The notes below the pieces were generated by a model that saw nothing but the letters and a program-made list of their open reading frames with translations, ran no database searches and was not told where the DNA came from. Below, one piece after another: positions 7,801 to 57,482 of a stretch of 62,896 nt of DNA. Position numbers and translations under genes: made by a program. Positions within the stretch are counted from its first letter, which is position 1, and each line of letters starts with the position of its first letter. This DNA comes from a virus (taxonomy: Duplodnaviria > Caudoviricetes), in the IMG/VR virus record IMGVR_UViG_3300030202_001144, positions 1 to 62,896 of that record, one strand, 5' to 3'.

Positions 7801-10800
7801 AGACTCACCTGTTATAGGATCAACTGGATTATTAATAACATCAAGTAATAACTTCCAATTGTCATACATAAATTTATCTAAATCAGAACCTTTTTTAAAA
7901 GTTATTGTTCTAACTAATGGGTACAATTTGTCTTGTAAAAGTTTTTGAAAATTATAAAACTGTAGTGTTTCAATATTAGGTGATCTTAATATTTCATTTT
8001 CTACTTGCTTTATAATCATTTCTACAGGGTTTTGATTAACTCTTAAAGCTTCATAAGTTTTAACAATAGAACCAGAACCTAAATCAAAAGCTTCAAAACT
8101 TCTTAATTTTTGTAATTCATCATTTTCCGCCTTAGTCCTACCTTGTATAGCTTCTAATTCTAAACCTCTTTTTAAATCTCTTTTTTGTTGTTCTAATTGT
8201 TTTTTAACTTCAGGATCTTCTTCCGCAGCTATTCTTTTATTTATAGTTGTATCAGGATCATCTAAAGTTTCTAAACTAATAATTCTATCACCTAACGGTA
8301 TAGTTTCTATAGTAATATCATTACCATCTACATCTACAAAACTAAAAACAGGATCACTTAGTAGTTCAATTAATTGATCTTGATCTTCATCAAATTTAAT
8401 TTTTTGTTCTTCTGCAGTTGATTCATCTATTTCACTAGTAGTTCTTTCATCTATTTCACCAGTAAATTTTTGAGTTGTAATACCAGGTTTTTTTAAGGCT
8501 TCCTTTATTTTATTATTTAACTGAGCATTTATCCATGCGTTTAAATCATTGTTCTCTGTTATTGTTTCACCTTTTTTGTTTTTATAACCTTTTTTATCTT
8601 GAGCTTCAAGTCTTTTAGATATTTCAGCTTGACTCATTCCTTTCGCCGCTAAACCATCTTTAAATTGTTCTCTTAATTTTAAAAATTCTTTATTAAAGTT
8701 TCTTATGTGTTTTAATAGTTCTACCTGTGTTTCAGCTATTAAATCCTCTATTAAAATATTAGGTAGATTAGAATATTGAGTTTGTATTTTATAACCTATA
8801 ACATCAGCATAATCTTGTAATATATCATACACAACACTATCAATACCTGTTTGTGTAGAAAATACTTCAGGACTATAATAATCGTTTATATTATCTTTAA
8901 ATTCCTCAGGGTTTAATCTTTTTGTAACTTTTAAAGAAAACTTAGTATCTATTTCATCTGCTAGTTGACTTTCTTCTTCGTCAGTTGTTGCTGCTGTTGC
9001 GGCTGCTGTAACAGCTGCTCTACGCTGTGCTCTTTTTCTATTTTTTTCAACTATAGTTTCAGCTACTTTTTTAAAACGATCAGCTTGTTCTTGCTGTCTT
9101 ATTTTTTTCTTTTTAAGTTTTTCTTTAGTAGTTGTTTCAAGTTCTTTTTCTTCTTGCTGTAATCCCTTTTTTTCTTCTTTTGTTAAACCTTGTTTTTCAC
9201 CTAGCTTTTTAAAAGCTCTATTATATTTTAACATACCTGATTTAACACTTTTATTATAATCACGCAGCATGTTAAATACATCTTTACCACTACCTAAATC
9301 TATATCTCTTGCACCAACAAATTGCATAGCTCTTCTCCAAGAGTTTCTAATTTTTTGTATTGCGTCTTCATCATAACTTAAGTTTATATCAGGATCACCT
9401 ATAGCTTCTGAATATAAAGTTAAAGCTTCTTCCCAACTATTACTTAGTGATTCATCTATTAGTCTATCACCTTCTTGTTTACTTATAGCTTTGTTTTGAA
9501 CACTTCTTCTAACTTTTTCTTTTACATCCTCAGCTCTTTGTAAATAACCTAATAATCTTCTTTTAAATGAACTAGGTAATACACTTTGATCTGCATCATC
9601 TTTTAACTGTAAATCTAGCTTAGCTAATTCATTAAATAAAGCTTTACCAAGCAGTCTACCTGCTTCCGGATCATTTTTAACTACTTCGTTTATTAACGCA
9701 TGTAAAAATTCATGTTGAGCTGTTTGAGTCATTCGTCTACCAGAAGCATCAGGTTTACCAGCATTGTATTTAAATTCAAGAGCATATTTAGTTCCGTCTT
9801 GATCAAACATAGCTCCAAATGAACCTTTTTTAAGGAATCTATTTTTTAAATATCTTTCAAACTCTTGATTTGTCATTTCTCTACCAAGACTTTTACTATA
9901 TCTATTTACAGTGCTTTTTAAATATTCTAAAGCTTGTTGTTCATTGTCAAAAGCTTTATATATAGTATTACCTGCTACACCAGCTCTAGCAGCTGCCATT
10001 ATACCTTTTCTTTGTGACTTAGTTAACTCGTTATAATAAGTATTATTTATTCTGTCTTTTAACGCTTGAATTTGATCATCATAACCAGTAAAACCTTTAG
10101 GAGCTTTTTTCTTATCGTTTTCTAGTTGATTTAACTGTTGTATGTCAGATAAAATAGTCGAAGCTGCTTTAGCTGACATATTTGGTGGAACATGATTAAT
10201 AGTATTTTTATATTGATCAACTTCACCTAATAAATTATCTACTTCTTGCTGTGTATATATACCTTGTTCTATTTGACTAGCTAACAATGATTTTAAATCA
10301 GACTCATTGTAAGCCATAAATGCTAAAGAATTAAATCTATCAACAGCGTCCCAACCCATAAACTCTCTTAACTGCTGATTTGCAGAAGAAGTTATTGTTC
10401 CTGCGCCTGGCATAAATGCACCAGCTGTAAATGATAAAGCAGAAGTGTGTATAAAATCTTGTAAAGTATAATCTTCTTTGACTATTTGTTGACCAGCTTG
10501 TCTATTAATATCAGCACCAATTTGAGTTGTTTCTCCAAACTGTTGTATATTTTCTTGAAAAAGCTCTTTCCAACCTTCTCTTTGTATCATATCAGCTGTT
10601 CTGATAATATCTTTTCCAGTTTGTTTTAAACCTTCTCTAGTTCCAAATCTTTGACCTTGTGTTTTCCAAAAATCACTCCAACCTTTCCAACCACCTTTCA
10701 TGTATCTTTGAACAGCTACTTCAATGTTTTCTTTAACAGGTTTACCAAATAATAAGTTTTGAGCTTTTGTTTGGGGACTTATAGGTGCTGTAATAGCATA

Positions 10801-26654: not shown

Positions 26655-27851
26655 TTAATTGTTAAATTTCCTTGTTTTTATTCTAAGTTTTGAAGCATCA
26701 GAGCCACTTATTGCGCGAACTTTGAGTCCTTTAACAAAAACATCTCCTGAGCTTTCTTTTCTAGGTTCAGTACTTAAGTTTTTAGTTTTAGCAACTAATT
26801 CTTTAGTAGCATCCGCTTTTCCTTGCTCATAAAAATGTTTTGCAATAGTATCAGAATTCCTTGCAGCATACATGGCTTTGTGGTATCCTTGTGGATCAAC
26901 TAACATGCCATCTTTGTCTAAGAACGTCTCGACAAAGTTTGTAATATCTGTTTGATTTTCCACTATTTCGTTAGGATTTCTTACTCCGTACCTAAATTTT
27001 TTATCACCTACTTTAAAATCAAAACCTTTGAATTCATCAGTAAAAGTATCTTTAGTTACTTTTTGAAAAACCTCTCTTTGTTTAGATAGTGTTTTCTGAT
27101 CTTCGTTGTATCGGTTGAAAAAATCTATAGCTTTTTGTTGATCAGCATTTACATTTGATCTCAACTTGATTTCATCATAGTACTTGCTTTTTAAATCGTT
27201 TAAATAGCTTTTAGCTTTTCCAACTTCTTCTTTGAACGCTAATTTTTTCTTTTTAACTTCGCGTTCTTCATCTACATCTTCATCTACTTTAAAATTATCT
27301 TCCATTAAGAAGTTAACTTCATCGTAGCTTAAATGTGGACGAGTATTTTTATAATATTCTCTTAACAATGCTTCATTATCAATATTTTCATAATCAGCAT
27401 TTAATCTTACATAATCTTCTACCGTTCCTCCAGTTTCTTCCATAAATGAAACTAGTTTTTCTACATTTTCAGGTAACTGTTTTACCGGAGCTTCTACTTT
27501 TTTTATCGGCTCAGGTTTTTCTTTTGTTTCTTTTTCTTTTTCTTCTTCAGTTACTGGTATTTCTTCAATAACATTCTCAGCGGTCCCTTCGTGTGTTTGT
27601 CCCACTTCTTGCAATCCCACCTCGGATCCTTCTTCGCGTAACACGCTGCTCTCTGTTTCTTGCTTTTGAACGGCATCTTTTTCTTCTGTTTTAGTTAAAT
27701 CAACTTTAATTGGTTCTGCTGCTTTTTTTTGAGCTGCTAAATCAATTTTAACTGTTTCTTCTGGAACTGTTAATTTTTTAGGTACTCTTTTCTTTTTAAT
27801 TTTAAAGTCACCTTCTTGTTTAACAGGTTCATTTGTTTTAGTTTCTGACAT
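26655..27851 (-). CDS. Putative scaffolding protein
   Basis: Acidic, E/K-rich, between portal and MCP. Confidence 0.6.
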   Translation of the reverse strand: MSETKTNEPVKQEGDFKIKKKRVPKKLTVPEETVKIDLAAQKKAAEPIKVDLTKTEEKDAVQKQETESSVLREEGSEVGLQEVGQTHEGTAENVIEEIPVTEEEKEKETKEKPEPIKKVEAPVKQLPENVEKLVSFMEETGGTVEDYVRLNADYENIDNEALLREYYKNTRPHLSYDEVNFLMEDNFKVDEDVDEEREVKKKKLAFKEEVGKAKSYLNDLKSKYYDEIKLRSNVNADQQKAIDFFNRYNEDQKTLSKQREVFQKVTKDTFTDEFKGFDFKVGDKKFRYGVRNPNEIVENQTDITNFVETFLDKDGMLVDPQGYHKAMYAARNSDTIAKHFYEQGKADATKELVAKTKNLSTEPRKESSGDVFVKGLKVRAISGSDASKLRIKTRKFNN

Positions 27852-27884
27852 AATATAATATAATTAAATAATTAATAAATAGTT

Positions 27885-30299
27885 TTATCTAGGTTCAAAT
27901 TGTTCTAAATCAAAACCACCTAAAGAATCAAAACCAGCAGATTCAAAATCAGTAGGCAAAGCGTTGTTCTGTCTTTGCTGTATTAATTGAGATTCCTGCG
28001 TGCCTTGCATTTTAATTCTTTTATCTTTTCTGTTTTCTATTTCTTGTTCTTTTCTTCCTTCTGCATCTGCTTTAATTTGAGCTAACTGCATATTGTAATT
28101 AAACTCTTCAGCCATTAATTCTTTTTTAATACTAGCTTCAGTTTGCATACGCTGTATTTCAAATTGAGATTTAGCTTGTTCTATTTGAACTTCAGTTTCA
28201 GCTAACGCTTGTCTTTTCTGCATTTCAGCTAACGTTGCTTGTTCAGCAGCTTGAGCATTAGCAGCAGCTTGAGCTTGTATATTAGCTTGTTGAGCTGCTT
28301 GATCTTTTTCTAATTTCTTCTTACGCTTTTGCTTTAGTAATTGATTAGCTAGTTTTAAATTTTTAACTTGTCTAATATCTATAGCATCGTCTAAATCTAT
28401 ACCACCAGAAGCTAAAGCAACTTGTATGTTTTGTTCAAGCTGTGCTTTTTGCTCTTCGTCTGGTTCTAATTCTAAAAATATACCAAAGTCTTGTAAACTT
28501 TTTTCTTGTAACTCTTCTAATGTACCTGTATTGTATGCAGATATAGAATCTATTAAAGCAGCTCTAGTTAAAGGATATTGAAGAACATCTGCTATTCTTA
28601 ATGAAATGTTTTCACATACTCTTAACGTTAAATACAAACTAGCTTTCATCAAATGTCTTAAAGCTGTGTTAGAATTAGCTGCAGCAATTTTTTGTAAACC
28701 TACTAACGCTTTTACATCAGGAGTACTTGCATCTGTAGCTTCGTTTAATCCGGTCACGTCTCTTATCATTTGTAAATAATATTGATAAGTTTGTATTAAG
28801 CTAGCTATTTTTTGTCCACCTGAAGACGTTTGTAATTCTTGAATAGGTACTTTACCTCTATTTATATCACCTTCTTGCGTCATTGATCTACCAACAATAC
28901 TACCTGTTTGAAAGTACATGTTTAATGCTTCTGCAGGATTATAGTTAGTACCATTACCTAAATCAACTTCAGCTAAACCATCAACATCTACAAAAACACC
29001 ATCTGGAACCATACGAGATAACACTTGTTGTAGTTTTAAATGCGTCAATTGAATCATATCAGCAAAACCTGTAATACGACTTACTGTTGATTCAATCATA
29101 CCCTTATATAATTTAGGAGCACATATACAGTAATTCATATTTACTTTACTAACATTAGAGTTAGGTCTAGTCATATTTTCAGAAAGTTTCCATTCCAACA
29201 TCATATCGTGACCTAATATTTTAGCGCCTGTATATAATACTTCTATAGCTCTACCAACTCTTTCAAAATTGTCATTAACTGGAGGATTAAATGTATCTGG
29301 CTTTTCTAGTGCTTTTTCTAAACCTTGTTCAGTTTGTTTTATTTTAAAAACTTGATTACTATATGTTTTATATTCAAAATATAATACCTGAACCTGATTA
29401 TAAGAATCTTGTTGAGCATAAAAGTTTCTAGTGTAATTAGCATCACCAGGATATTTTTCTATTTTTTCTAACTCTTGATCAGTTAACCATGGAAATTGTT
29501 TTTTTACTTCTACTAAACTCATTGATTTAACTTCACCTACATAGTATATATCTTCAAAATTTGGATCTTCTGTGTAAGAATATACTAGATTAGCAGGATC
29601 AACATAATCAATATCAATTCCATTTGCTAAATTAAAATTAGTTTTTGTTGCACCTATACCTATTACTGTTAAATCTTCTATTAATCTTCTTTTAACTAAC
29701 TCATATTTGTTAGCTTGTAATACGTTGTCAATAGCCTCTTCTTCTGCAATTTCTATAGACTGCTTGTAACTTAGCTGCATATGTAAGTCTAAATCCTCTT
29801 GAGTTTCAGGAATATTATTAGGATCAGCGCTATTAAAGAAATTTAAACCTGTAGCTTCTTTAGTAGCCTGTATCATTTCTTTAGCATACATATCACGCAT
29901 TATAGCGTCTGCGTATTTTGTTCTTTGCTTTAATGACTCAGGATCTTGAGCAAATGCTTTTATATCAAAAATTCTTTGAGACATACCATTAACTATTATA
30001 TCTACAAATTTCGGTATAATAGGAACTGGTTTCCAGTCTAAATTAAGATATGATAAATCACCGTTTACAGCAAGTTCATCTTTATATTTTTGAACGGGTT
30101 GTTCACCTCTAGCATATAGTCTTAGTCTATGAAAATTTAACCAGCTGTTTTGGTATCTGTTACCCATACCTCCTCTATCTCCAGAAAACCACTCTCCTTC
30201 AATAGCTCTACCTACAGCGTAACCATATTCCATTGTTTGCTTTTCCGCGTCCGGTACCACCTGACTAGGAAATGAACCTGCATAATTATATGTTATCAT
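27885..30299 (-). CDS. Portal protein
   Basis: 804 aa directly after TerL; PIIPKFVDI, VTGLNEA motifs; long C-terminal coiled coil (barrel). Confidence 0.85.
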   Translation of the reverse strand: MITYNYAGSFPSQVVPDAEKQTMEYGYAVGRAIEGEWFSGDRGGMGNRYQNSWLNFHRLRLYARGEQPVQKYKDELAVNGDLSYLNLDWKPVPIIPKFVDIIVNGMSQRIFDIKAFAQDPESLKQRTKYADAIMRDMYAKEMIQATKEATGLNFFNSADPNNIPETQEDLDLHMQLSYKQSIEIAEEEAIDNVLQANKYELVKRRLIEDLTVIGIGATKTNFNLANGIDIDYVDPANLVYSYTEDPNFEDIYYVGEVKSMSLVEVKKQFPWLTDQELEKIEKYPGDANYTRNFYAQQDSYNQVQVLYFEYKTYSNQVFKIKQTEQGLEKALEKPDTFNPPVNDNFERVGRAIEVLYTGAKILGHDMMLEWKLSENMTRPNSNVSKVNMNYCICAPKLYKGMIESTVSRITGFADMIQLTHLKLQQVLSRMVPDGVFVDVDGLAEVDLGNGTNYNPAEALNMYFQTGSIVGRSMTQEGDINRGKVPIQELQTSSGGQKIASLIQTYQYYLQMIRDVTGLNEATDASTPDVKALVGLQKIAAANSNTALRHLMKASLYLTLRVCENISLRIADVLQYPLTRAALIDSISAYNTGTLEELQEKSLQDFGIFLELEPDEEQKAQLEQNIQVALASGGIDLDDAIDIRQVKNLKLANQLLKQKRKKKLEKDQAAQQANIQAQAAANAQAAEQATLAEMQKRQALAETEVQIEQAKSQFEIQRMQTEASIKKELMAEEFNYNMQLAQIKADAEGRKEQEIENRKDKRIKMQGTQESQLIQQRQNNALPTDFESAGFDSLGGFDLEQFEPR

Positions 30300-40118: not shown

Positions 40119-40565
40119 TTATCTATTTTTATCTATATTAACATTATATATAGAAGTTCTTAAAACTTTATTTGTATACGTATCTTTTCTCATTATAATA
40201 TTTCTTCTTTCGCTTGTAGGTATATCTTCATAACCTAACATTATTTTATAAATTTTATTTATAAGTTGTTTTGCTTTAAACGATATTTTATAAATATTAT
40301 ATTTTTGAGTCGTTCTATTTCTATGACGCCAAACAACTATCCAGTTGTTCTTTATTAATTTGTTCCATCTTTTTTTATCCCAACTATAAGAGTATGTACC
40401 CATTTTAAAATCTTTTATGGTAAACATATCTACACAATCTAAATAAATTAACAATTCTAATTCAGCATCATTTAAGCCGTTGTTCTTACAAGCCCACTTA
40501 CGTATTATACGATAATGTTTCAGCAAATTCAGATCTTTTAAATCTGATGCTTCTAGCCTTTTCAT
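40119..40565 (-). CDS. Basic hypothetical protein, possible winged-helix
   Basis: GLNDAELELLIYL...YKISFKAKQL resembles MarR-type wHTH. Confidence 0.45.
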   Translation of the reverse strand: MKRLEASDLKDLNLLKHYRIIRKWACKNNGLNDAELELLIYLDCVDMFTIKDFKMGTYSYSWDKKRWNKLIKNNWIVVWRHRNRTTQKYNIYKISFKAKQLINKIYKIMLGYEDIPTSERRNIIMRKDTYTNKVLRTSIYNVNIDKNR

Positions 40566-40825
40566 AAAACAACGACCACATCTTGTGATTTTATAACATG
40601 ATAAGTATTATCTTCTACTTCTATTTTATGTCCTGCGTGTCTATCAAAATAAATAGTATCATTTTCATTTAATCCTTTTATTTCATCACCTACAGCTAAA
40701 ATAGTAGCTTTAGTATATCTAATATCATCTTTATGTTTTTCACCTAAAAGTAAACCACCTTTTGTTTTTGTGGTTCCTTCTTTGGTTTTTTCTATTATTA
40801 AATTTCTACCTATTGCTTTCATCAA
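40562..40825 (-). CDS. groS: Co-chaperonin GroES
   Basis: TKGGLLL mobile loop, AVGD, small Cpn10 size. Confidence 0.85.
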   Translation of the reverse strand: MMKAIGRNLIIEKTKEGTTKTKGGLLLGEKHKDDIRYTKATILAVGDEIKGLNENDTIYFDRHAGHKIEVEDNTYHVIKSQDVVVVL

Positions 40826-42362
40826 CTCTAATATTATTAATTACACAATCTGTAGATAAAATTGTAGTAGCTACTGAAGCAGCGTTTTTTAACGCGCTTT
40901 TAGTTACAAGCAAAGGATCAATTACACCTTCATCTATCATGTTTGCTTTAGCTTTATTTATTACATTTATACCTACACCATCTTCAGCAGGTATAACTAT
41001 TTCATCTATACCAGCATTATTTAATATAACTTTATAAGGAGACATAATAGATTCTAATAAAATTTGTTCACCTTGATTATCTCCTTTTACATTAAAAGAA
41101 GCATTTAACAAAGCAACTCCTCCTCCAGGAACTATACCTTCTTTTATAGCAGCTTTAGTAGCACATATAGCGTCTTCAGCTCTATCTAATTTTTCTTTTA
41201 GTTCAACTTCTGAATTAGCACCTATTTTTACAACCGCAATTTTTGCAGATAATCTAGCTAATCTTTTTTCTAAACTTATTATTTTATCAGGTATTTTACA
41301 ACTTTTTAATTCCTTTTTGATTTCTTCTATTATACTTAATGTTTCCGGTTTTGTTTCACCTATTTGTATAATAGTTTCATCTTCTGTAGTAACACTTTTT
41401 AAACATGAACCTAAATAGTCTATATCTATTAAATCCATATCGTCACCTAAATTTTCATTTATAACAACAGCATTTGTAAGTAATGCAATATCATCTAATA
41501 TTTGCTTTCTATTTATACCTAATACTGGAGCTTCTACTACATTTATTTTTATATTGCCTTTTGTTTTGTTCATTGCTAATGCAGTTAAAACATCAGGACT
41601 TAAATCACCTATTATTAATAATTGTTTTTTATTTTTTATAACATGTTCTAATATAGATTGTATTTGCCTTATAGTAGAAACTTCAGAATCAATAATTAAA
41701 ACTAATGGATTATCTAATTCTGCAGACTTGTTTTCTTTGTTTGTTATAAAATGAGGTGATGTTATACCTTTAGGATATTGTGCACCATCAATTACTTCAG
41801 TTTTAGTTTCACCCGAAACTGATACTTCCATCATTACTACGCCTGTTTTATCTACTGATCTAAAAGCATTAGCTATTAATGTACCTAATTTTTTATCGTT
41901 ATTAGTAGATATAGTTGCAACATGATCAAGCATTTCATCTTTAACAGGTATTGAAATATTATCTAAATATTTTACAACTTTATCAACACAGCTGTTTACA
42001 CCTTCTTTTATTATTCTTACGTTTTTTTTATCTAACACTTTATAAGCATTATCTAAAATAGCGTGAGCTAATACGGTTGCTGTAGTGGTTCCGTCGCCTG
42101 CTTCCTGTACTGTTTTTTTAGCAGCTTGTTTTAATAATGTAGCACCCATATTTTCTACTGGGTTTCTCAATATTATGTTTTCTGCTACAGTTACACCATC
42201 TTTAGTAATTATAGGATTACCATTGGAATCTTCTAAAATAACACACTTACCGCTAGCTCCTAAAGTGGAGCTAACAGCTTGTGTAAGTTTTTCAATTCCT
42301 TCAAATACTTTATCTCTAGCCTCGTTACCGAAGTTAAGATTTTTTACTATCATATTTGACAT
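40806..42362 (-). CDS. groL: Chaperonin GroEL
   Basis: ITKDGVTVA, AGDGTTTATVL, GIVPGGG, GVIDP motifs. Confidence 0.95.
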   Translation of the reverse strand: MSNMIVKNLNFGNEARDKVFEGIEKLTQAVSSTLGASGKCVILEDSNGNPIITKDGVTVAENIILRNPVENMGATLLKQAAKKTVQEAGDGTTTATVLAHAILDNAYKVLDKKNVRIIKEGVNSCVDKVVKYLDNISIPVKDEMLDHVATISTNNDKKLGTLIANAFRSVDKTGVVMMEVSVSGETKTEVIDGAQYPKGITSPHFITNKENKSAELDNPLVLIIDSEVSTIRQIQSILEHVIKNKKQLLIIGDLSPDVLTALAMNKTKGNIKINVVEAPVLGINRKQILDDIALLTNAVVINENLGDDMDLIDIDYLGSCLKSVTTEDETIIQIGETKPETLSIIEEIKKELKSCKIPDKIISLEKRLARLSAKIAVVKIGANSEVELKEKLDRAEDAICATKAAIKEGIVPGGGVALLNASFNVKGDNQGEQILLESIMSPYKVILNNAGIDEIVIPAEDGVGINVINKAKANMIDEGVIDPLLVTKSALKNAASVATTILSTDCVINNIRVDESNR

Positions 42363-42761: not shown

Positions 42762-43451
42762 TTATATTCCAGCTACATTATCTATATCAGCTGCATCTAC
42801 ACTTATTATGTTATCTATATCATCACCATCAACCCCTATAACATTATTTGAATAACCAGTAGCTGTAGCTGTAAATTCAAGTCTTGGAACATAAGAAAAA
42901 TTTTGATAACCATTCAGGGTTTGTACTAAAAGCGGCGCTTGATTATTATAATCGTCATACCACATTACAGCTAGTTTTAAGTAACCAGTACTAAATGCAC
43001 TAATAGCAGTTGAGTTTAAAGTTATGTCACTAATACTATTTGTATCAGGCCAATATGTTGTACTACTTCCTCCATATAGAGTGCTAAAATCTACATCACC
43101 AAAATCACTTGATGATAAATTTGTATCTGCATTTCCTTGAGCTGTAGACTTTACAATAGCTATTGGAAAATTACTACTACTAGTAGCTGTAGGATCAAGT
43201 CTTAATCTTAAGTTACTAATAGTGTATCCTGTTTGATAACTAGTTACATCAAAAGCAAAGAAAGCGCGATATAACTGCCATTCACTTCCTTTACCACCAG
43301 ATACATATCTCATCCTAACAGAAATAGCATTGCTACTAGTAGGTTGATTTGAAGTAAAATCATTTGCAGTACTAGAGTTTCTACATTGACTAAACGAATT
43401 AATTGATGAATTCCCTAGTATTCCATATTTAGATGCATTTATTGTAGGCAT
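42762..43451 (-). CDS. Putative virion carbohydrate-binding (DNRLRE-like) protein
   Basis: RAFFAFDV..ISNLRLRL...PRLEFT pattern; lies in the tail fibre block. Confidence 0.4.
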   Translation of the reverse strand: MPTINASKYGILGNSSINSFSQCRNSSTANDFTSNQPTSSNAISVRMRYVSGGKGSEWQLYRAFFAFDVTSYQTGYTISNLRLRLDPTATSSSNFPIAIVKSTAQGNADTNLSSSDFGDVDFSTLYGGSSTTYWPDTNSISDITLNSTAISAFSTGYLKLAVMWYDDYNNQAPLLVQTLNGYQNFSYVPRLEFTATATGYSNNVIGVDGDDIDNIISVDAADIDNVAGI

Positions 43452-49190: not shown

Positions 49191-49371
49191 ATAAGGGGTT
49201 ACTTATAGAGGGTTATGGGGTTACTACCTATTTTTTGACATAGCTTTTTTTTAGGAAAGTCGTTTTGTTTTTGCCGGGTTGCCCTTTGTTTTAGAGATTT
49301 GCAATAACGTTTTTACCTTTGGTTTGTAATACCGTCTAGCTTTTTAGCTTTTTTTATAGTGCTATGCGAGT

Positions 49372-49440
49372 CACGGACTTGCGAGTGAATGATTACGATG
49401 GAAACTTCACGGACTTATGTCTATGTTATGTAGATACTAT
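49372..49440 (+). promoter_or_regulatory. Tandem class 1 promoters P1 (degenerate -10) and P2: GGACTT-N16-GATACTAT
   Basis: CACGGACTT at 49372 and 49408. Confidence 0.75.
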
Positions 49441-49465
49441 ATTTGAATTTAAAAAATAATATACT

Positions 49466-49720
49466 ATGAGTAACACAAAGAAAACTAAAGTAAACACATT
49501 GCAAACTAAAAGATTTGTAATACGTAAGTCATTAATCGGTAAGAATACTGTAATCGTATTCACTAATCACAAAGGTGATAAATGCGAGTACAATCACGAT
49601 GTAGTCTATAACCAATTAAAAGACAAGTTCGAGTCAATGCCATGCTTCGCTAAGTATTCCAGTTATACCAATAGCAAGAATCTACCAAAGTTTGTCCGTG
49701 ACTTAGAAGTCATTATGTAG
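49466..49720 (+). CDS. Early hypothetical protein, paralog A
   Basis: ORF track; highly similar to the next gene. Confidence 0.85.
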   Translation: MSNTKKTKVNTLQTKRFVIRKSLIGKNTVIVFTNHKGDKCEYNHDVVYNQLKDKFESMPCFAKYSSYTNSKNLPKFVRDLEVIM

Positions 49721-49727
49721 TGTAAGC

Positions 49728-49758
49728 AAAGAGGTAACTTCGGTTGCCTCTTTCTTTT
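49728..49758 (+). terminator. Intrinsic terminator
   Basis: AAAGAGGTAAC-TTCG-GTTGCCTCTTT followed by CTTTT. Confidence 0.85.
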
Positions 49759-49779
49759 ACCCTCTGCCCTGACCTTCAC

Positions 49780-49809
49780 GGACTTGCATAATGATTTAAA
49801 CGATACTAT
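49780..49809 (+). promoter_or_regulatory. Class 1 promoter P3
   Basis: GGACTT-N16-GATACTAT. Confidence 0.8.
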
Positions 49810-49834
49810 TTCTGAATTTAAAAAATATATAACT

Positions 49835-50074
49835 ATGAGTAAAAATCAAAACTTAGTCACAAAAAGGTTTGTCATTAGAAAGACCTTAATTGGTAAAAAT
49901 GTAGTAATTACTTTTACTAATAAAAACAACGAGCAATGCACTTATAACCATGACCTGGTTTATAATCAACTAAAAGAGAAGTTTGATAATATGCCTTGCT
50001 TCAATAAATATGGCAATTATACTAACACTAATAACTTACCTAAGTTTGTTAGAGATTTAAAGAAATTAGTATAA
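49835..50074 (+). CDS. Early hypothetical protein, paralog B
   Basis: ATG at 49835; TKRFVIRK.LIGKN...NLPKFVRDL shared with paralog A. Confidence 0.85.
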   Translation: MSKNQNLVTKRFVIRKTLIGKNVVITFTNKNNEQCTYNHDLVYNQLKEKFDNMPCFNKYGNYTNTNNLPKFVRDLKKLV

Positions 50075-50081
50075 TTAATTA

Positions 50082-50127
50082 GTGACATTAGGCTATTACT
50101 ATTATAATCTTAATAGCCTTTTGTCAT
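50082..50127 (+). terminator. Hairpin, probable terminator
   Basis: GACA.AGGCTATTA / TAATAGCCT.TGTC inverted repeat. Confidence 0.55.
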
Positions 50128-50155
50128 TTATTATTCTAACTGATGTCACCTCCAC

Positions 50156-50185
50156 GGACTTGCGTGATATTCCTTGCGATAATAT
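50156..50185 (+). promoter_or_regulatory. Class 1 promoter P4
   Basis: GGACTT-N16-GATAATAT. Confidence 0.8.
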
Positions 50186-50929: not shown

Positions 50930-50944
50930 GCCTCTAGAGGCAAT

Positions 50945-50992
50945 GGAGCATACTACGGTACTAAGGTGTGGGTTCGACTCCCACTATGCTCC
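50945..50992 (+). ncRNA. 48-nt mini tRNA-like element (acceptor plus T arm only)
   Basis: GGAGCATA/TATGCTCC stem plus GTGGG-TTCGACT-CCCAC. Confidence 0.7.
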
Positions 50993-51006
50993 CTAAAATT
51001 ATAATT

Positions 51007-51366
51007 ATGAATTGGAAACAAAAACAACTATGGCTTGAAGACTGCTTTGTAAGAGCTATGCTTCATGAACATAATATTGTAGAAACTACTACAAAAAGAC
51101 AATGGCGTAATGGTACACGTCAGTTTAAGTTACCAACAGGTCAAACGCTAGCAACCTATAAATCAGGTATGGTTCGTAGATGTGATAGTAGTGACAGAGT
51201 TTATCAGATTAATCCTCAATATAAAAGAAAAGTTAGATGGATGTATCTTGATGGTATTGATTTAGTCACAAAAGAATACACAACTACGTCACGAGTAAAG
51301 ATCTGGTCAGGTTTAGCTAGACTAAACTATTTATTACAGTATTATCTTAAAAACTATAAAAAATGA
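51007..51366 (+). CDS. Basic hypothetical early protein
   Basis: Start moved to ATG 51007, after the tRNA-like element. Confidence 0.7.
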   Translation: MNWKQKQLWLEDCFVRAMLHEHNIVETTTKRQWRNGTRQFKLPTGQTLATYKSGMVRRCDSSDRVYQINPQYKRKVRWMYLDGIDLVTKEYTTTSRVKIWSGLARLNYLLQYYLKNYKK

Positions 51367-52325: not shown

Positions 52326-52427
52326 TGTTTTTCATAGTTATATAGTAGCATATTGGCAAACAACCGGAAGCGCACCGCTAACACCTACAATTTAACATAG
52401 GTAAGTTATGAGCGACTCGAGGTTGGT

Positions 52428-52527
52428 TGACTAGGTCAGGTTGTGGTAGATAAAGCTAGGGTGAAATAGACCAATGATGTGGTTCTACTGGCTACGACGG
52501 TATGAGGTTCGAGTCCTCACTAGTCAC
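52428..52527 (+). ncRNA. 100-nt tRNA-like RNA without a canonical anticodon arm
   Basis: TGACTAG/CTAGTCA acceptor, TGAGG-TTCGAGT-CCTCA T arm, internal GTTGTGGT/GCTACGAC stem. Confidence 0.7.
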
Positions 52528-52678
52528 TAATAGGGTAAAACACGAAGGACGGTTAGCTTAACGTCAAAAACATTATGTGGTGTCTACGGAGTAATTACCG
52601 AGTGACGTACGGAAGTGTATTATGTGAGACGGCGAACCCCTGAAAGCGTGGGTATGTGCACGATACCACCCTTGACAT

Positions 52679-52750
52679 AGCGGGATAGAGCAGTGGTAGC
52701 TCGCAAGGCTCATAACCTTGAGGTCGTAGGTTCGACTCCTACTCCCGCAA
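52679..52750 (+). tRNA. tRNA-Met (CAT), initiator type
   Basis: Full cloverleaf; 1:72 A-A mismatch, A11:U24, anticodon CAT; CCA not encoded. Confidence 0.92.
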
Positions 52751-52770
52751 CTAATTTTAAATCTAAAACT

Positions 52771-53304
52771 ATGGCAACAAGAAATATGATTATGGTTGTA
52801 CCAGAAGAGTACGGCTTCAATGAACATGGTCTAATGACTGCGGTTCCTAACAGTGTAGAAGAAAAAAGCTACCTTAATTTATACATGCATCATGATGGTT
52901 ATCCTGAATGGCAAGGTGTACAACTAGCAAATTGGAGATTAGCTAATCCAACTATGGATATAGCTCGTGCTTCAGCTAAACTAGCACGTGATATGTACTA
53001 TGACAGTAGCTATTTATATCCATCAGTAAATAGTATTGATCACCAATATACTTACATAGTATGGGTCGGTAAAGAAAATAATAAAATATCTTGCTTTGAT
53101 AGATATAATAGTAAACATGTATTTACTATGACACCTAATGAAATTAAAACTAAGTATGCAGGCGATATGGATTATACTGATTTTGCTAAAGGTGAAACTA
53201 GATGTCGCCGTAATAATACAATTTCAAAAGAAGAATTAGCTACATATAATAAAGTTAGAGCTAATGCACAGAATATAATAGATATATTAACCCATTCGGA
53301 CTAA
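52771..53304 (+). CDS. Conserved phage protein (YxHxDGYP family)
   Basis: MATR...LYMHHDGYPE; start moved out of the tRNA. Confidence 0.75.
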   Translation: MATRNMIMVVPEEYGFNEHGLMTAVPNSVEEKSYLNLYMHHDGYPEWQGVQLANWRLANPTMDIARASAKLARDMYYDSSYLYPSVNSIDHQYTYIVWVGKENNKISCFDRYNSKHVFTMTPNEIKTKYAGDMDYTDFAKGETRCRRNNTISKEELATYNKVRANAQNIIDILTHSD

Positions 53305-53327
53305 AATAAATTAACTCACGATAATAT
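53298..53327 (+). promoter_or_regulatory. Class 1 promoter P7
   Basis: GGACTA-N16-GATAATAT. Confidence 0.7.
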
Positions 53328-53354
53328 AAATGTATAACAAATAAAAATTAGATT

Positions 53355-53570
53355 ATGAGAACTATTAAATTCAAAGGTAAAGACACAATGTTTATTGACG
53401 GTGTTGAGTACAAAGGTTACACAGTTGGTAATCTGCCAAATTCATTTGGTTTTAAAGAAAAATATTTAGGCACAGATGAAGAGGGTAATGACCAATACAA
53501 ATATGGTAAATCAAAGTGGTTTAAATTCAGAAGTTTAACTTGGTTAGAAAAACCTCCAACACCTTGGTAA
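53355..53570 (+). CDS. Hypothetical protein
   Basis: ORF track. Confidence 0.7.
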   Translation: MRTIKFKGKDTMFIDGVEYKGYTVGNLPNSFGFKEKYLGTDEEGNDQYKYGKSKWFKFRSLTWLEKPPTPW

Positions 53571-53571
53571 T

Positions 53572-53832
53572 ATGGATTCAAAGAAAAAATATGAACAAAT
53601 GGTAGAAGACGGAGATATAGTTCCTACATATGCTAGAGAATTATATGAGTTATCTAAACTACCTCCGCCAAAGCCAAGGCCTTTAGGTACAATGATAGTA
53701 CCTGATGAAGCTAATGCTAGAGAATTATGGGAACAATACTTTAAAGCTAATAGTCCTGGTATATATGGATGGGAAGAGTTTGAAATAGCTTACTCATTCA
53801 TGATCTGGTGCTATGGAAAACGAAAAAGATGA
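53572..53832 (+). CDS. Hypothetical protein
   Basis: ORF track. Confidence 0.65.
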   Translation: MDSKKKYEQMVEDGDIVPTYARELYELSKLPPPKPRPLGTMIVPDEANARELWEQYFKANSPGIYGWEEFEIAYSFMIWCYGKRKR

Positions 53833-54026
53833 GAAAATTTAGAAGATACAAAGAAAACTTAAGACGAGTAGGTAATGATATATGGTCTTACTCTACTCAT
53901 GTCGCAACAATAGAATATCCTGGTAAACTAATACAACATGGTTGGTGGAGTGTAACAACACAGAAACATATTAACTATGTAGCAAGAGAATTATGTTTAA
54001 CTATTGAAAAGGATTATACAGATTAA
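53829..54026 (+). CDS. Conserved small phage protein (SYxTxVA...WSxTTxKHIN)
   Basis: Motif recognised; ATGA overlap. Confidence 0.7.
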   Translation: MRKFRRYKENLRRVGNDIWSYSTHVATIEYPGKLIQHGWWSVTTQKHINYVARELCLTIEKDYTD

Positions 54027-54031
54027 TTAAC

Positions 54032-54177
54032 GGGCGCGATAAGGTATTGACCGAGACGTGGTAACAGTAAGCTAAGAACAGTCACAACTCACCAGGGAAT
54101 CCCATGGTTGACCGTACGGCTGAGACGCTGAATCCAACCGAGTCATGGTAACGCAGGTTCGAGTCCTGCCGCGTCCA
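54032..54177 (+). ncRNA. Miniature tmRNA-like RNA (146 nt)
   Basis: GGGCGCG/CGCGTCC acceptor with G3-U70, discriminator A, stemless D loop ending TTGAC, T arm GCAGG-TTCGAGT-CCTGC. Confidence 0.7.
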
Positions 54178-54197
54178 CTAACTTTAAATTTAAAACA

Positions 54198-54662
54198 ATG
54201 GCAGAATTATTAACTGATGAAATCATCAAAGAAAAATTAGAGATGGATGGCTTTATGGAAGAGCCAGATGCTCCTTGGTTACTAGAATATATTTCAACAG
54301 AGTATGGTGGTAACTTAGATAATACAACAGACTTTGTAGATGACAAATGGACTTTAAAAATATACAGTGAAATGACCTACGATGGTTACGATATATTTTG
54401 GTGTACTCATGAAGATAAACCTTATGTATCTCAAGACGGTTATTATTATGAAGACTATAATGAATGGTCAGACAAAGCAGTACAAGAACTAACTAGTGGT
54501 AACAATGTATGGGTAGATCCTAATCTATGGTCAGACATGGAGTTTGACTTTAACCATGAGCTAGAACATTGGTGGCAAGATATATATGAAGAGTATTGGG
54601 ATCAGTATAAAGAAGAATTATTAGACTCAGGAGATTATTATGAAGAAGAAGATAAAGGATAA
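54198..54662 (+). CDS. Highly acidic aromatic-rich protein
   Basis: About 44 D/E versus about 8 K and no R by manual count. Confidence 0.75.
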   Translation: MAELLTDEIIKEKLEMDGFMEEPDAPWLLEYISTEYGGNLDNTTDFVDDKWTLKIYSEMTYDGYDIFWCTHEDKPYVSQDGYYYEDYNEWSDKAVQELTSGNNVWVDPNLWSDMEFDFNHELEHWWQDIYEEYWDQYKEELLDSGDYYEEEDKG

Positions 54663-54725
54663 TGCAGAACAAATATGCATTATAGTATTTGTAATAGCTT
54701 ATACTATAATAGTAAATAGTTGATA

Positions 54726-55250
54726 ATGAAAAAAAGATTAGAAGAAATATTTAAGAATAATTATGGAGATATATATGCGGTGATCTATAATAAAACTAAG
54801 AACAAGCATTTGTCTCATGAAATAATACAAAGAACTTTCTTTAAATTATTAAATAGTAAATCTAAACCTAAAGATACTAAGCTATTGTCTTATGTTATAG
54901 TAGCCGCATGTACTACATTATTAGATCACTATCGTTCATTAAAAACTAGAAGAAAAAATCTAGATGATAATAGATATAATGAAAATATTTTAGACATAGT
55001 TGATAATAATCTTTCAATTGAAGACGTTATAATACTGAATAATAATAATAAATTAATCAAAAGATTAATTGATTCTTTATGTGATGACTTTAAAAAAGTT
55101 ATAATATATAAGTATTATAAAGAGATGACGTTTAAGCAGATAGCTGAGAAAACAAATGTAAGTATTAATACAGCTTTAGGCAGACATAGATATGCTTTAA
55201 ATAAATTAAGGAAATTATCATCCGGACTTAATATAAATAACTTTAGATAA
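54726..55250 (+). CDS. ECF-type RNA polymerase sigma factor
   Basis: Region 2 (EIIQRTFFKL..LLDHYR) and region 4 (MTFKQIAEKTNVSINTALGRHRYAL), as in Bacteroidetes ECF sigmas. Confidence 0.85.
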   Translation: MKKRLEEIFKNNYGDIYAVIYNKTKNKHLSHEIIQRTFFKLLNSKSKPKDTKLLSYVIVAACTTLLDHYRSLKTRRKNLDDNRYNENILDIVDNNLSIEDVIILNNNNKLIKRLIDSLCDDFKKVIIYKYYKEMTFKQIAEKTNVSINTALGRHRYALNKLRKLSSGLNINNFR

Positions 55251-55253
55251 TAT
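55224..55253 (+). promoter_or_regulatory. Class 1 promoter P8 (probably leaderless)
   Basis: GGACTT-N16-GATAATAT overlapping the end of the ECF gene; ATG 6 nt after GATAAT. Confidence 0.8.
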
Positions 55254-55257
55254 AAAC

Positions 55258-55764
55258 ATGAATATATTTTATTTACATTCCGATCCAGTTAAAGCTGCAA
55301 CAGTACAATACAATAAGCATGTAGTTAAAATGATATTAGAATCAGCTCAAATGCTTTGTACAGCTCATCATCATTATGGCGCTGGTGATAATGTTCCTTA
55401 TAAAAAAGCACATTATAATCACCCTTCAACTATATGGTGTAGGCAAAACGATAAACAATATATGTGGTTGTTTAATCACATGTTAGCATTAGGAGCAGAG
55501 TATACTAAACGATATGGTAAAAAACATGTATCAATAGATAAATGCTTTGGTCCATTATCTTTTTTACCTCCTAATATACCAACAGATCAAGAATTTACAG
55601 AACCTCCACAGTGTATGCCTGATAAATATAAAGTTCCAGGTTGTAGTATTACAGCTTATTGGAATTATTATGAAGGTGAAAAATATATTGTAGCTAATAA
55701 AAACGAAATGTTAATAACAAGACCCAAAGAATATGAGACGAAAATTATATCAACACTTAATTGA
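55258..55764 (+). CDS. Pyrimidine-dimer DNA glycosylase (DenV/endonuclease V)-like protein
   Basis: MNIFYL...KHVVKMILESAQML...HYNHPSTIW. Confidence 0.75.
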   Translation: MNIFYLHSDPVKAATVQYNKHVVKMILESAQMLCTAHHHYGAGDNVPYKKAHYNHPSTIWCRQNDKQYMWLFNHMLALGAEYTKRYGKKHVSIDKCFGPLSFLPPNIPTDQEFTEPPQCMPDKYKVPGCSITAYWNYYEGEKYIVANKNEMLITRPKEYETKIISTLN

Positions 55765-56131: not shown

Positions 56132-56746
56132 ATGAATGAACGTAATATTAACTGGTTAATTGAACGCAGGATTATATTTAGACGAGATCCTATAAACGAT
56201 AAACCAACTATTGAAACCCATCAGTATAAATACTATGAAGACGGGACGTATGAGTGTTATCATTTATTTAATAGTAAATCTAAAATTACTACATATAAAT
56301 CATTAAAGTGGCATTTATTTGTATTATACTATCTTAATATGGATAACATAATAAACTCTGATTTTGTTACTGTAGCTAGATTTATTGCTGATAAACAAAA
56401 TGGTTTTGTTACATTTTTTATTAAGAATAAATTATTAGAAGAAATAATTGGAGATGTATTAATGCAAGGTGGTGATCCTCCAAAAAATAAGCTTAGAAAG
56501 ATAATATTTAAGATGTCAACGGGGTTATCTACTAGGGAAAAGCTATCAATAGTAGGTAAACTAATTGGTAGAAGTAAATTAGATAAAGAAACAATATATC
56601 AAGGTATGATTGATATAAATTCTGATGGTGTAAGAATAACTACGCGTTGGTTAGCAGAGCTATTAGGTGTTTCACAAAGAACAATACATAGACATATGTG
56701 TGAAGATCTTAAAAGAGAAAAAAAATTGATGAATGAAGAGTTATAA
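56132..56746 (+). CDS. DNA-binding protein with C-terminal HTH
   Basis: TTRWLAELLGVSQRTIHRH. Confidence 0.7.
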   Translation: MNERNINWLIERRIIFRRDPINDKPTIETHQYKYYEDGTYECYHLFNSKSKITTYKSLKWHLFVLYYLNMDNIINSDFVTVARFIADKQNGFVTFFIKNKLLEEIIGDVLMQGGDPPKNKLRKIIFKMSTGLSTREKLSIVGKLIGRSKLDKETIYQGMIDINSDGVRITTRWLAELLGVSQRTIHRHMCEDLKREKKLMNEEL

Positions 56747-57482
56747 TGTATCTAATTACATCAGGTATAAAGAAGATTTAAAACAATCAATGCCTGAAGA
56801 TAAGTTCTATGATTATTATACACGAGATGAACTTATTATAAAGTTTCTACCATTAGTTGAAACAATGGCTAGAAAATTCTCTACAGATAGTAGAGCGTGT
56901 GGAGTATTAACTATAATGGATTTAATACAAGCTGGAGCTGAAGCATTAACTAGAGCTGTAGATAAATTAGATTGGTCATTACTAGAAGACTCAGAAGATA
57001 TTGAAAAGACTTTAAAAAGTTTTTTTAGCAAAAGAATAAAAGGACATATACGTAGGCGTATTGATATAGGTAGAGGAACTATGCGTATACCTGAACATAA
57101 ATTAAATGAAATACGTAGTAATCCAAGAGATAAAAAAATGGTTGCTATGTTTTTTAATAGTGTATTTTTATCTATAGATAAAGAATCAAGTGTAGATGAA
57201 AATATGGTTTATCAAATACCTGATAAATCAGAACCATATAATATACAGTTAATGAATGTATATTTAAAAAGTTTAATGCAGAAATATTTAGATTTTGCTG
57301 AATATGAAGTATTAAGATTAAGTTATGGTTTAGACTGTGATAAACATTCTGCTAAACAAATTGCAGAACTTTTAAACATAGTAGGACCGAGTGCTTATGT
57401 TAGAATTTCAGAGCTAAAAAAGCAGGCGGTACAAAAACTTATAGACAATGTAGATCACTCGCAAGTGCTTGATTATCTGTAA
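56733..57482 (+). CDS. Sigma-70 family (RpoD/SigF-like) sigma factor
   Basis: LPLVETMARKF, DLIQAG..L.RAVDK, MRIP, VLRLSYGL, IAELL...RISELKKQAVQKL. Confidence 0.85.
   Translation: MKSYNVSNYIRYKEDLKQSMPEDKFYDYYTRDELIIKFLPLVETMARKFSTDSRACGVLTIMDLIQAGAEALTRAVDKLDWSLLEDSEDIEKTLKSFFSKRIKGHIRRRIDIGRGTMRIPEHKLNEIRSNPRDKKMVAMFFNSVFLSIDKESSVDENMVYQIPDKSEPYNIQLMNVYLKSLMQKYLDFAEYEVLRLSYGLDCDKHSAKQIAELLNIVGPSAYVRISELKKQAVQKLIDNVDHSQVLDYL

Follow-up and report, generated by a model that had tools for sequence, protein, structure and literature searches.

A conserved phage RNA gene with the tRNA-like domain of tmRNA and no tag reading frame

The stretch of DNA analysed here, hereafter the window, is the 62.9-kb IMG/VR virus record IMGVR_UViG_3300030202_001144 (Duplodnaviria; Caudoviricetes; positions 1 to 62,896), with an estimated completeness of 97%. 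An RNA element at positions 54032–54177 on the plus strand sits in a 171-nt gap between plus-strand open reading frames (ORFs), and with a G+C content of 54.8%, against 31.9% for the whole window, it forms a G+C island. The element was confirmed to be a real, conserved RNA gene that carries the tRNA-like domain (TLD) of transfer-messenger RNA (tmRNA). From its sequence relationships it is near certain to be a phage tmRNA without a coding sequence (CDS-less), in which the TLD and H2 would have been kept and all that lay between the H2 strands, pseudoknots and tag template, replaced by a variable hairpin. Its parts are as follows.

54032–54038, plus strand: 5' strand of the acceptor stem, GGGCGCG; G54034 is G3 of the G3-U70 pair
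54039–54049, plus strand: A8 (54039), U9 and the stemless D-loop-like stretch AUAAGGUAUUG, unpaired in folds
54050–54062, plus strand: 5' strand of the H2-like helix (ACCG.GAC.UGGU), from folds
54063–54069, plus strand: 5' side of the conserved internal loop, AACAGUA, part of the UAACAGUA motif that occurs in 12 of the 19 close (type A) relatives described below
54070–54129, plus strand: variable hairpin with the stem AGC/GCU (54070–54072 with 54127–54129), capped by a 54-nt insert (54073–54126)
54130–54136, plus strand: 3' side of the internal loop, GAAUCCA, conserved in the alignments
54137–54149, plus strand: 3' strand of the H2-like helix (ACCG.GUC.UGGU), from folds and covariation
54150–54152, plus strand: linker AAC between the helix and the T stem, in the place of the variable loop
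54153–54169, plus strand: T arm, GCAGG/UUCGAGU/CCUGC, paired in 22 of 22 sequences
54170–54177, plus strand: 3' strand of the acceptor stem, CGCGUCC, with the discriminator A54177; U54174 is U70

The D region consists of 11 unpaired nucleotides (54039–54049), including GGUAUUG, that continue into the AC of the helix, and its GG would meet the T loop. The H2-like helix is interrupted, with 13 nt per strand and one A/A mismatch, and includes the pairing CCGAGAC/GUCAUGG. The TLD hallmarks that the initial annotation of this locus had claimed (G3-U70, discriminator A, A8, a stemless D loop, the CCGAGAC/GUCAUGG helix and a T arm) were all found to be present. The interior of about 84 nt that it gave agrees with the 84 nt counted between the helix strands as it had drawn them, and the absence of an ssrA-like ending was confirmed, with no window frame ending in A[A/V]-stop.

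RNAs of this kind were detected by profile searches with the Rfam tmRNA model (RF00023) below its gathering threshold. In the window genome, RF00023 matched the element end to end (model positions 1–374; 30.9 bits, E 2.5e-12), and no match at E≤1 was obtained in a control record with ordinary tRNAs. For the minimal relative, L244, tmRNA was also the best Rfam family (29.1 bits, E 9.5e-11): both the 5' consensus GGGGguGAu.cuGGaUUCGAC and the 3' consensus ending in CGcGGGUUCGAuUCCCgCCacCUCCA were aligned, with 312 model positions deleted in between, and its D-like stretch aligned to the portion GAu.cuGGaUUCGAC. The tRNA model (RF00005) gave only a local T-loop match to the element of 13.2 bits, compared with 65.8 bits for the real tRNA-Met of the window. 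The original description of a tmRNA-derived RNA without pseudoknots or tag frame is upheld, and the interior is a simple hairpin. ARAGORN called no tmRNA in the window, its only call being the tRNA-Met at 52679–52751, and at the Rfam gathering threshold (47 bits for RF00023) the element was not reported, nor was anything else in the window besides that tRNA-Met. The published TLD-only RNA of phage DS6A, used as a positive control, scored 43.2 bits in the same RF00023 search, also under the cut-off, and it too is missed by ARAGORN; these negative results are therefore uninformative for RNAs of this type. Weak matches to the mascRNA family (RF01684; cut-off 42.5 bits) were seen on the element (17.8 bits) and at 52469–52525 (25.2 bits). 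A megablast search of 53000–55500 against 50,697 phage records gave no match, and blastn with the element returned only T-arm-sized pieces of ordinary tRNAs, with no record covering at least 80% of the query. Unconstrained folding of the element produced the proposed structure (z −2.06; 3 of 200 shuffles folded as well), and minimal relatives folded more clearly (z −3.1 and −4.4; none of 200 shuffles). Judged against tmRNA, the element thus has a 7-bp acceptor with G3-U70 and discriminator A, a T arm with stemless D loop, and H2; it lacks a tag frame with its resume codon and stop, the pseudoknots PK1–PK4 and a score at the gathering threshold. Judged against the DS6A type, it consists of a TLD and a closed H2 hairpin and lies nearer to tmRNA (30.9 bits) than to tRNA (13.2 bits).

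Relatives were gathered from IMG/VR by scanning for sequence patterns and by searching with neighbouring genes; chance matches dominated two viral scans, whose patterns were 14 bases long or degenerate, and both were filtered with a script. This yielded 19 distinct close versions (type A, 76–161 nt) and five diverged ones (type B, 105–106 nt), all in uncultured marine phage contigs, type B occupying the same position as the window copy, directly upstream of a gene for a protein of 154 amino acids. One scan of genome contigs returned a single true relative, L280, on a 6.7-kb contig in an Ilumatobacteraceae metagenome-assembled genome (MAG) bin, and five other loci that were unrelated. Loci L281, L282 and L284, on Acidobacteriota and Nocardia MAG contigs, have a pattern-identical T arm and an acceptor-like 3' strand and are not ARAGORN tRNAs; they have no relation to the phage family. 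The type A acceptor, GGGCG[C/U]G/C[G/A]CGUCC, is nearly invariant, and G3-U70 and the discriminator A are found in all 19 sequences. The type A trailer begins with CUA in 17 versions and CAA in two, and never with CCA. A helix in the H2 position is likewise present in 19 of 19, in seven sequence versions with pairing kept each time. Type B has A3-U70 in four of its five members and G3-U70 in the fifth, with the fold retained, and the discriminator is U in two of the five.

Covariation was assessed in an alignment of 22 sequences (18 of type A and four of type B). The acceptor and T arm were paired in 100% of cells, including all seven acceptor pairs in 22 of 22 sequences, and pair 3:70 was GU in 19 and AU in three. 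Changes on both sides occurred in 12 of 23 pairs, among them acceptor pairs 1:72, 5:68 and 6:67 as well as pairs of H2, where the changes are, as judged from the alignment, compensatory. The observed covariation was reached by none of 500 shuffles, and in slid controls the paired share fell from 88.5% to 32–45%.

The interior between the helix strands ranges from a 5-nt loop in L244, which is 76 nt in total, to about 100 nt in L259. In the window copy, the 54-nt insert at 54073–54126 stands where L003 has a GUAA tetraloop, and the module GAACAGUCAC...GGCUGAGAC of this insert is seen again in L004 and L090, within a different RNA context. The initial annotation had pointed to two resume-like motifs sharing a frame that stops at the UAA at 54073–54075. 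The letters are there, and the window frame GUA-AGC-UAA does end at 54073–54075, but neither the frame nor its stop is conserved. The UAACAGUA motif is absent from seven of the 19 type A versions; the frames read from its GUA are VS, VSVS, VSES, VSAS, VDSNLIVLS, VSV, VRATAA and VN, each followed by a stop, and three further ones without a stop, and no conserved tag frame or stop was found among the 19 type A sequences. The frame VRATAA of L252, which ends TAA-stop, was considered as a tag and rejected, one case in 19 being about chance level. In the shortest relatives (L244, L245 and L255; 76–79 nt in total) there is no room for a tag frame, the helix of L244 being capped by its 5-nt loop. Because frames and motif vary among relatives and the module also occurs in an RNA without a TLD, the resume-like motifs and the UAA are not regarded as conserved signals. 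The loop motifs AACAGTAAG and TGAATCCAAC were not enriched in the window and had no complement in the window RNA region.

The window terminase shares 63% identity with its counterpart in an uncultured spring-water podophage and 31–45% with the terminases of Flavobacterium, Maribacter, Cellulophaga and Tenacibaculum phages, and sequencing runs holding the sequence carry mostly marine metagenome labels. From this resemblance to the terminases of flavobacterial phages, we infer that the host is a member of the marine Flavobacteriaceae. Distant cultured relatives, with terminases 36–41% identical to that of the window, carry longer tmRNAs.

L379 (KC821614.1), 26803–27164, minus strand: tmRNA of Cellulophaga phage phi38:1, by ARAGORN and RF00023
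L380 (MT732433.1), 42950–43311: tmRNA of Cellulophaga phage Calle_2
L381 (PP540027.1), about 27557–27889: permuted tmRNA of Maribacter phage Panino

The tmRNAs of phi38:1 and Calle_2 are full-length (about 360 nt) and score 87 bits, over the cut-off; the tag predicted for both by ARAGORN, AQIEANMEAVNAILNLEVAVGV followed by a stop, has 22 amino acids and ends in VGV and not in the usual Ala-Ala. In Panino, the gene opens with the T arm and 3' acceptor strand, the 5' acceptor strand lying about 40 nt behind them, and the predicted tag, GKVMNVSFAPTVRQFA followed by a stop, does not end in Ala-Ala either. The GenBank feature of the Panino tmRNA overlaps an annotated tRNA-Asp and tRNA-Thr. The authors of these Cellulophaga and Maribacter phages noted a 'tmRNA' (PMC8776804, PMC11590407). 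Aligned to the phi38:1 tmRNA, the 3' halves scored 47 (window and type A) and 61 (type B), shuffles averaging about 20 and none of 300 scoring as high, and the 5' half of the window element scored 34 against a shuffle mean of 22.1, with one of 300 as high. Since these alignments run past the T arm into H2, for the window element and for type B, they point to descent from a tmRNA gene; a UAUAACAGU-like loop after H2a is also common to the phi38:1 tmRNA and the window element. Across the eight phage TLD or tmRNA RNAs that were compared, a 3' end of UCCA followed by CUA is invariant, as is the AC before the T stem (eight of eight, including the phi38:1, Panino and DS6A RNAs).

The initial annotation had named a recent deletion, with full-length tmRNA in relatives, as an outcome that would overturn it. 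Full-length tmRNA does exist in the distant cultured relatives, but no over-cut-off RF00023 match was found in the 47 IMG/VR records of close relatives searched. Because 24 distinct conserved versions of the reduced form exist, it is, on comparative grounds, an established reduced phage tmRNA and no fresh deletion. Its distribution is patchy. IMG/VR contains more than 625 terminase relatives; from 80 of these loci, the 37 records with longer contigs (at least about 11.6 kb) were searched, and two contained the element. Of five records with a completeness of 90% or more, three have it (the window, G003 and G011, not G006 and G031), the window and G003 having been found through the element itself. 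It is also absent from phages phi13:2 and Gundel_1.

The closest published counterpart is the TLD-only tmRNA of DS6A (JN698994.1, 28478–28560), which like the window element is encoded by a phage. Both have an acceptor with G3-U70, a discriminator A, a stemless D loop, an H2 hairpin, a T arm, a linker ending in AC (4 nt are given for DS6A), no CCA, the trailer CUA and no tag frame, and both fall under the Rfam cut-off and escape ARAGORN. DS6A differs in belonging to an unrelated phage lineage with a host of another phylum. Its H2 is capped by a short hairpin, whereas the window copy has a conserved internal loop plus an inserted 54-nt module that a neighbouring large RNA also contains. Unlike DS6A, the window family comprises 24 versions, including a subtype without G3-U70. 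The RNAs of phi38:1, Calle_2 and Panino come from the same broad phage group and have the same ...UCCA|CUAA 3' end without CCA, and the TLD and H2 of phi38:1 are homologous to those of the window at the sequence level, including the UAUAACAGU loop; however, they are about 360 nt long or in two pieces and have predicted tag frames, whereas the window RNA is without the whole middle part. Bacterial tmRNA (ssrA, RF00023) shares the alanine pair, discriminator A, T arm, stemless D loop and H2, as described in PMC3968760, but the window element has no pseudoknots, resume codon, tag or encoded CCA. CDS-less tmRNAs of mitochondria and of Mallomonadaceae plastids also consist of the tRNA-like part only, without a tag frame (PMC11915505). 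These organellar RNAs co-occur with a dedicated imported SmpB, and the mitochondrial model (RF02544) found no match in the window at E≤10. In the literature searched, which left most subscription journals outside, TLD-only phage tmRNA was described for DS6A only and none for flavobacterial phages; the one supplementary file of PMC11915505 that was searched does not contain 'Flavobacterium', 'Cellulophaga' or 'Phage'.

The element was also represented in RNA libraries. In metatranscriptome run X15, a 120-nt contig lies wholly inside it (54040–54159) with no mismatches at a depth of 55, and the bin just upstream (53920–54000) had a depth of 0 in the same run. Runs X16, X18 and X19 showed no or only slight cover of the element, and X18 contained a relative's contig joining 52574–52622 to 54128–54181.

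According to PMC3968760, alanyl-tRNA synthetase (AlaRS) is the sole synthetase for tmRNA and acts through G3-U70 and A73, the elbow at which the stemless D loop meets the T loop is the binding site of SmpB, and H2 mimics a long variable arm. The window RNA has G3-U70 and A73, the stemless D loop and T loop, and H2, and offers nothing for translation to resume on. Mao 2009, as described in PMC4131195 and PMC11915505, found that a DS6A-like TLD-only RNA inhibits E. coli tmRNA whether or not it can be charged, perhaps through titration of SmpB. Having lost the tag-coding part, the element is more likely to interfere with host tagging of unfinished proteins than to perform tagging. A decoy had been one of two functions proposed in the initial annotation, and DS6A provides a published precedent for it. 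With the identity counted as near certain and the function as moderate, the role to which we give the best, though no more than even, chance is that of a decoy drawing SmpB away from host tmRNA by competition. For this, host RNase P and a 3' nuclease would cut the element out of an early plus-strand transcript, and a host enzyme would add CCA, as for the phage's CCA-less tRNA-Met. The type A form, the window copy included, would be charged by host AlaRS via G3-U70 and A73, and host SmpB would be bound at the elbow of D loop and T loop. Without a resume template, the RNA would then vie with the tmRNA of the host for SmpB, perhaps also for EF-Tu and stalled ribosomes, so that ssrA tagging would be damped together with the ensuing proteolysis and RNase R recruitment. 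An RNase P cut at 54032 would leave the stop codon of the upstream ORF (54024–54026) 5 nt from the new 3' end; as this is the kind of end acted on by tmRNA-SmpB, the phage would have a reason to blunt tagging. That four of five type B sequences have A3-U70 and yet keep the fold fits a charge-independent role.

Several observations weigh against a tmRNA-derived decoy. All RF00023 scores lie under the 47-bit cut-off, those of the relatives at 26.9–37.6 bits. CCA is not encoded at the 3' end of the element, where the trailer reads CUAAC; the tRNA-Met of the window is also without encoded CCA and has a CUAA trailer. The gene is accessory, being absent from the 100%-complete relative G031 and from the 90%-complete record of L004, which has no TLD at all, as well as from MW202828.1 and Flavobacterium phage elemoF. 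An H2 arm with the UAACAGUA/GAAUCCAA loop is found without a TLD inside a larger RNA of L004 and L006: at L004:2600-2720 and in the same region of L006, GACCGAG...GGUAACAGUAAG...CUGAAU(C/A)CAACCGA...GUGG is embedded with no acceptor or T arm. The H2 arm may thus have a function of its own that a decoy leaves unexplained. The RNA evidence consists of contigs, which speak for presence in a library and not for strand, ends or freedom from DNA. The host is known by inference, and a gain for a lytic phage from blocking trans-translation is conjectural.

The other function proposed in the initial annotation, rescue without tagging, would have the alanylated TLD enter a stalled ribosome with SmpB and EF-Tu and accept the nascent chain; the peptidyl-Ala-RNA would be freed by host ArfB, or by peptidyl-tRNA hydrolase (Pth) after drop-off, and no degradation tag would be added. 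Retention of G3-U70 and A73 in 19 of 19 type A versions, though one transition would remove the wobble, suggests that charging matters in type A, and mitochondrial CDS-less tmRNAs, which are found together with SmpB, are believed to assist with incomplete mRNAs (PMC11915505). The predicted tags AQIEANMEAVNAILNLEVAVGV and GKVMNVSFAPTVRQFA, being without an Ala-Ala end, hint moreover at a lineage habit of degron-free rescue. With neither template nor stop codon, however, release needs an extra factor, and Pfam searches of 62 of the 74 called ORFs revealed no ArfB/RF-1, Pth or SmpB domain; PHROGs searches on 30 ORFs added none of these, and neither search found Ro or integrase. G3-U70 is missing in four of five type B sequences, and the DS6A-like molecule inhibited tmRNA instead of replacing it (in the reports cited above). 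We therefore regard rescue by this RNA as rather unlikely. A role as a processing or stability signal is somewhat less probable again: cleavage by RNase P and a 3' nuclease would punctuate the early polycistronic transcript and release neighbouring RNA modules or the downstream mRNA, the tmRNA features being inherited and unused. The window holds two more tRNA-like elements (50945–50992 and 52428–52527) that are neither tRNA nor TLD. A CUAA followed by an A/U-rich leader and an ATG 14–20 nt on occurs after the TLD, the tRNA-Met and 50945–50992, though not after 52428–52527, and the 154-amino-acid gene lies directly behind the TLD in the window, L007 and L008 but behind tRNA-Met in L004, L006 and L074. 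A likeness to mascRNA (RF01684), with its acceptor-like stem and T arm, is relevant to this explanation only. Yet a pure signal needs no G3-U70, A73 or fixed acceptor sequence, and the D-loop and linker sequences remain tmRNA-like, whereas mascRNA-type elements have no alanine identity pair and no tmRNA-type D loop or linker. Acceptor stems of the other tRNA-like families vary freely by covariation, and that of type A hardly changes even where the H2 arms are unrelated; a processing role leaves this frozen alanine-type acceptor unexplained.

Hairpin modules of the H2 arm swap between the TLD and the large RNA upstream of tRNA-Met, which raises the idea of the TLD as a targeting handle that brings exchangeable RNA modules to SmpB or stalled ribosomes; this we hold to be doubtful, and equally doubtful that the TLD, the two other tRNA-like RNAs and the large RNA form one modular phage RNA machine acting on host translation or RNA decay. 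A decaying, functionless remnant of a phage tmRNA gene would accord with the full-length or permuted tmRNAs of distant relatives and with the absence of the element from several near-complete relatives. It is nevertheless very improbable in view of the intact acceptor and T arms of 24 distinct versions (pairing is 100% in the 22 aligned sequences), compensatory changes in H2, the G+C island and the exact 120-nt contig inside the element in an RNA library. Least credible is an intron-containing tRNA, which had been named at the outset as a possible refutation, or an otherwise aberrant one. The acceptor stem, the T arm, the GG in the D region and the 76-nt, tRNA-sized minimal relative recall a tRNA, but a D stem and a 7-nt anticodon loop are both absent, the interior can be as short as 5 nt or as long as about 100 nt and lacks fixed junctions, ARAGORN calls no tRNA in the 24 loci, and RF00005 finds the 13.2-bit local match alone. 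Two other candidates were rejected as well: a two-piece tmRNA, since H2 is closed by a hairpin so that a second strand cannot join, and an attP remnant, the TLD being complete and no integrase having been found by Pfam in 62 ORFs or by PHROGs in 30.

Several further RNA features were seen around the element. A non-coding stretch of about 350 nt at 52326–52678 (+), just upstream of tRNA-Met, is conserved and modular in relatives; its counterpart in L004 (L004:2330-2910) is about 580 nt long. The conserved core of this large RNA is formed by GGGUAAAACACGAAGGACGG (52533–52552) and ...GAAAGCGUGGG-hairpin-ACCC. No known family was found for it in Rfam at E≤10, and run X19 contained an exact 180-nt contig over 52325–52503. 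A hairpin at 52650–52671 (+) has a self-complementary 6-nt loop core, GUGCAC in 14 of 16 distinct relatives and AUGCAU and GUGCAU in one each, on a covarying stem (GGGUAU/AUACC, GGGCAC/GUGC, GGGUAC/GUAC); it looks like a kissing-loop dimerisation site and suggests kissing-loop multimers. The tRNA-like element inside the large RNA, at 52428–52527 (+), has the acceptor UGACUAG/CUAGUCA and a T arm and no alanine pair; relatives occur at L008:1503-1591, L235:50-161 and within L099:12-161, and in some phages it stands directly before the TLD. At 50930–50992 (+), a small hairpin (50930–50941) is followed by a tRNA 'minihelix' without an anticodon arm, made up of an 8-bp stem GGAGCAUA/UAUGCUCC, 15 unpaired nucleotides with GG, and a T arm (RF00005, 20.5 bits); the stem covaries to AGAGCAUA/UAUGCUCU in L007 and L008. 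The leaders after the tRNA-like RNAs lie at 50993–51009, 52752–52773 and 54178–54200, the two longer ones being nearly identical, CUAA(C/U)UUUAAAU(U/C)UAAAAC(A/U)AUGGCA. This arrangement suggests that 3' cleavage of the tRNA-like RNAs may make the 5' ends of downstream mRNAs.

Elsewhere in the window, TCACGGACTTG occurs in four copies with at most one mismatch within 49371–50162 (+), against 0.23 expected and with none of 100 shuffles reaching four. The copies precede two paralogous small ORFs (49466–49720 and 49835–50074) and a third gene at a switch from minus to plus strand, and probably serve as early promoters or operators. Just downstream of the TLD, two or more sigma-factor-like proteins are encoded (54726–55250 and 56733–57482, plus strand). 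GroES and GroEL homologues are encoded at 40562–42362 (−), and a protein of 2666 amino acids at 4900–12900 (−) has no PHROG match.

Since ARAGORN and the Rfam gathering threshold both miss the element, genes of this kind are overlooked by standard annotation. New here is a family of 24 TLD-type versions in an abundant clade of marine flavobacterial phages, which includes a subtype, type B, without the alanine identity pair and has H2 arms decorated with modules shared with a neighbouring large RNA. New too is the series within one phage group from full-length tmRNA (phi38:1, Calle_2) through the permuted form (Panino) and the decorated TLD with H2 to a minimal RNA of 76 nt. Together, the series and the subtype constitute a natural experiment on which tmRNA functions a virus retains, and the versions are testable candidates for natural inhibitors of trans-translation, a pursued antibiotic target.

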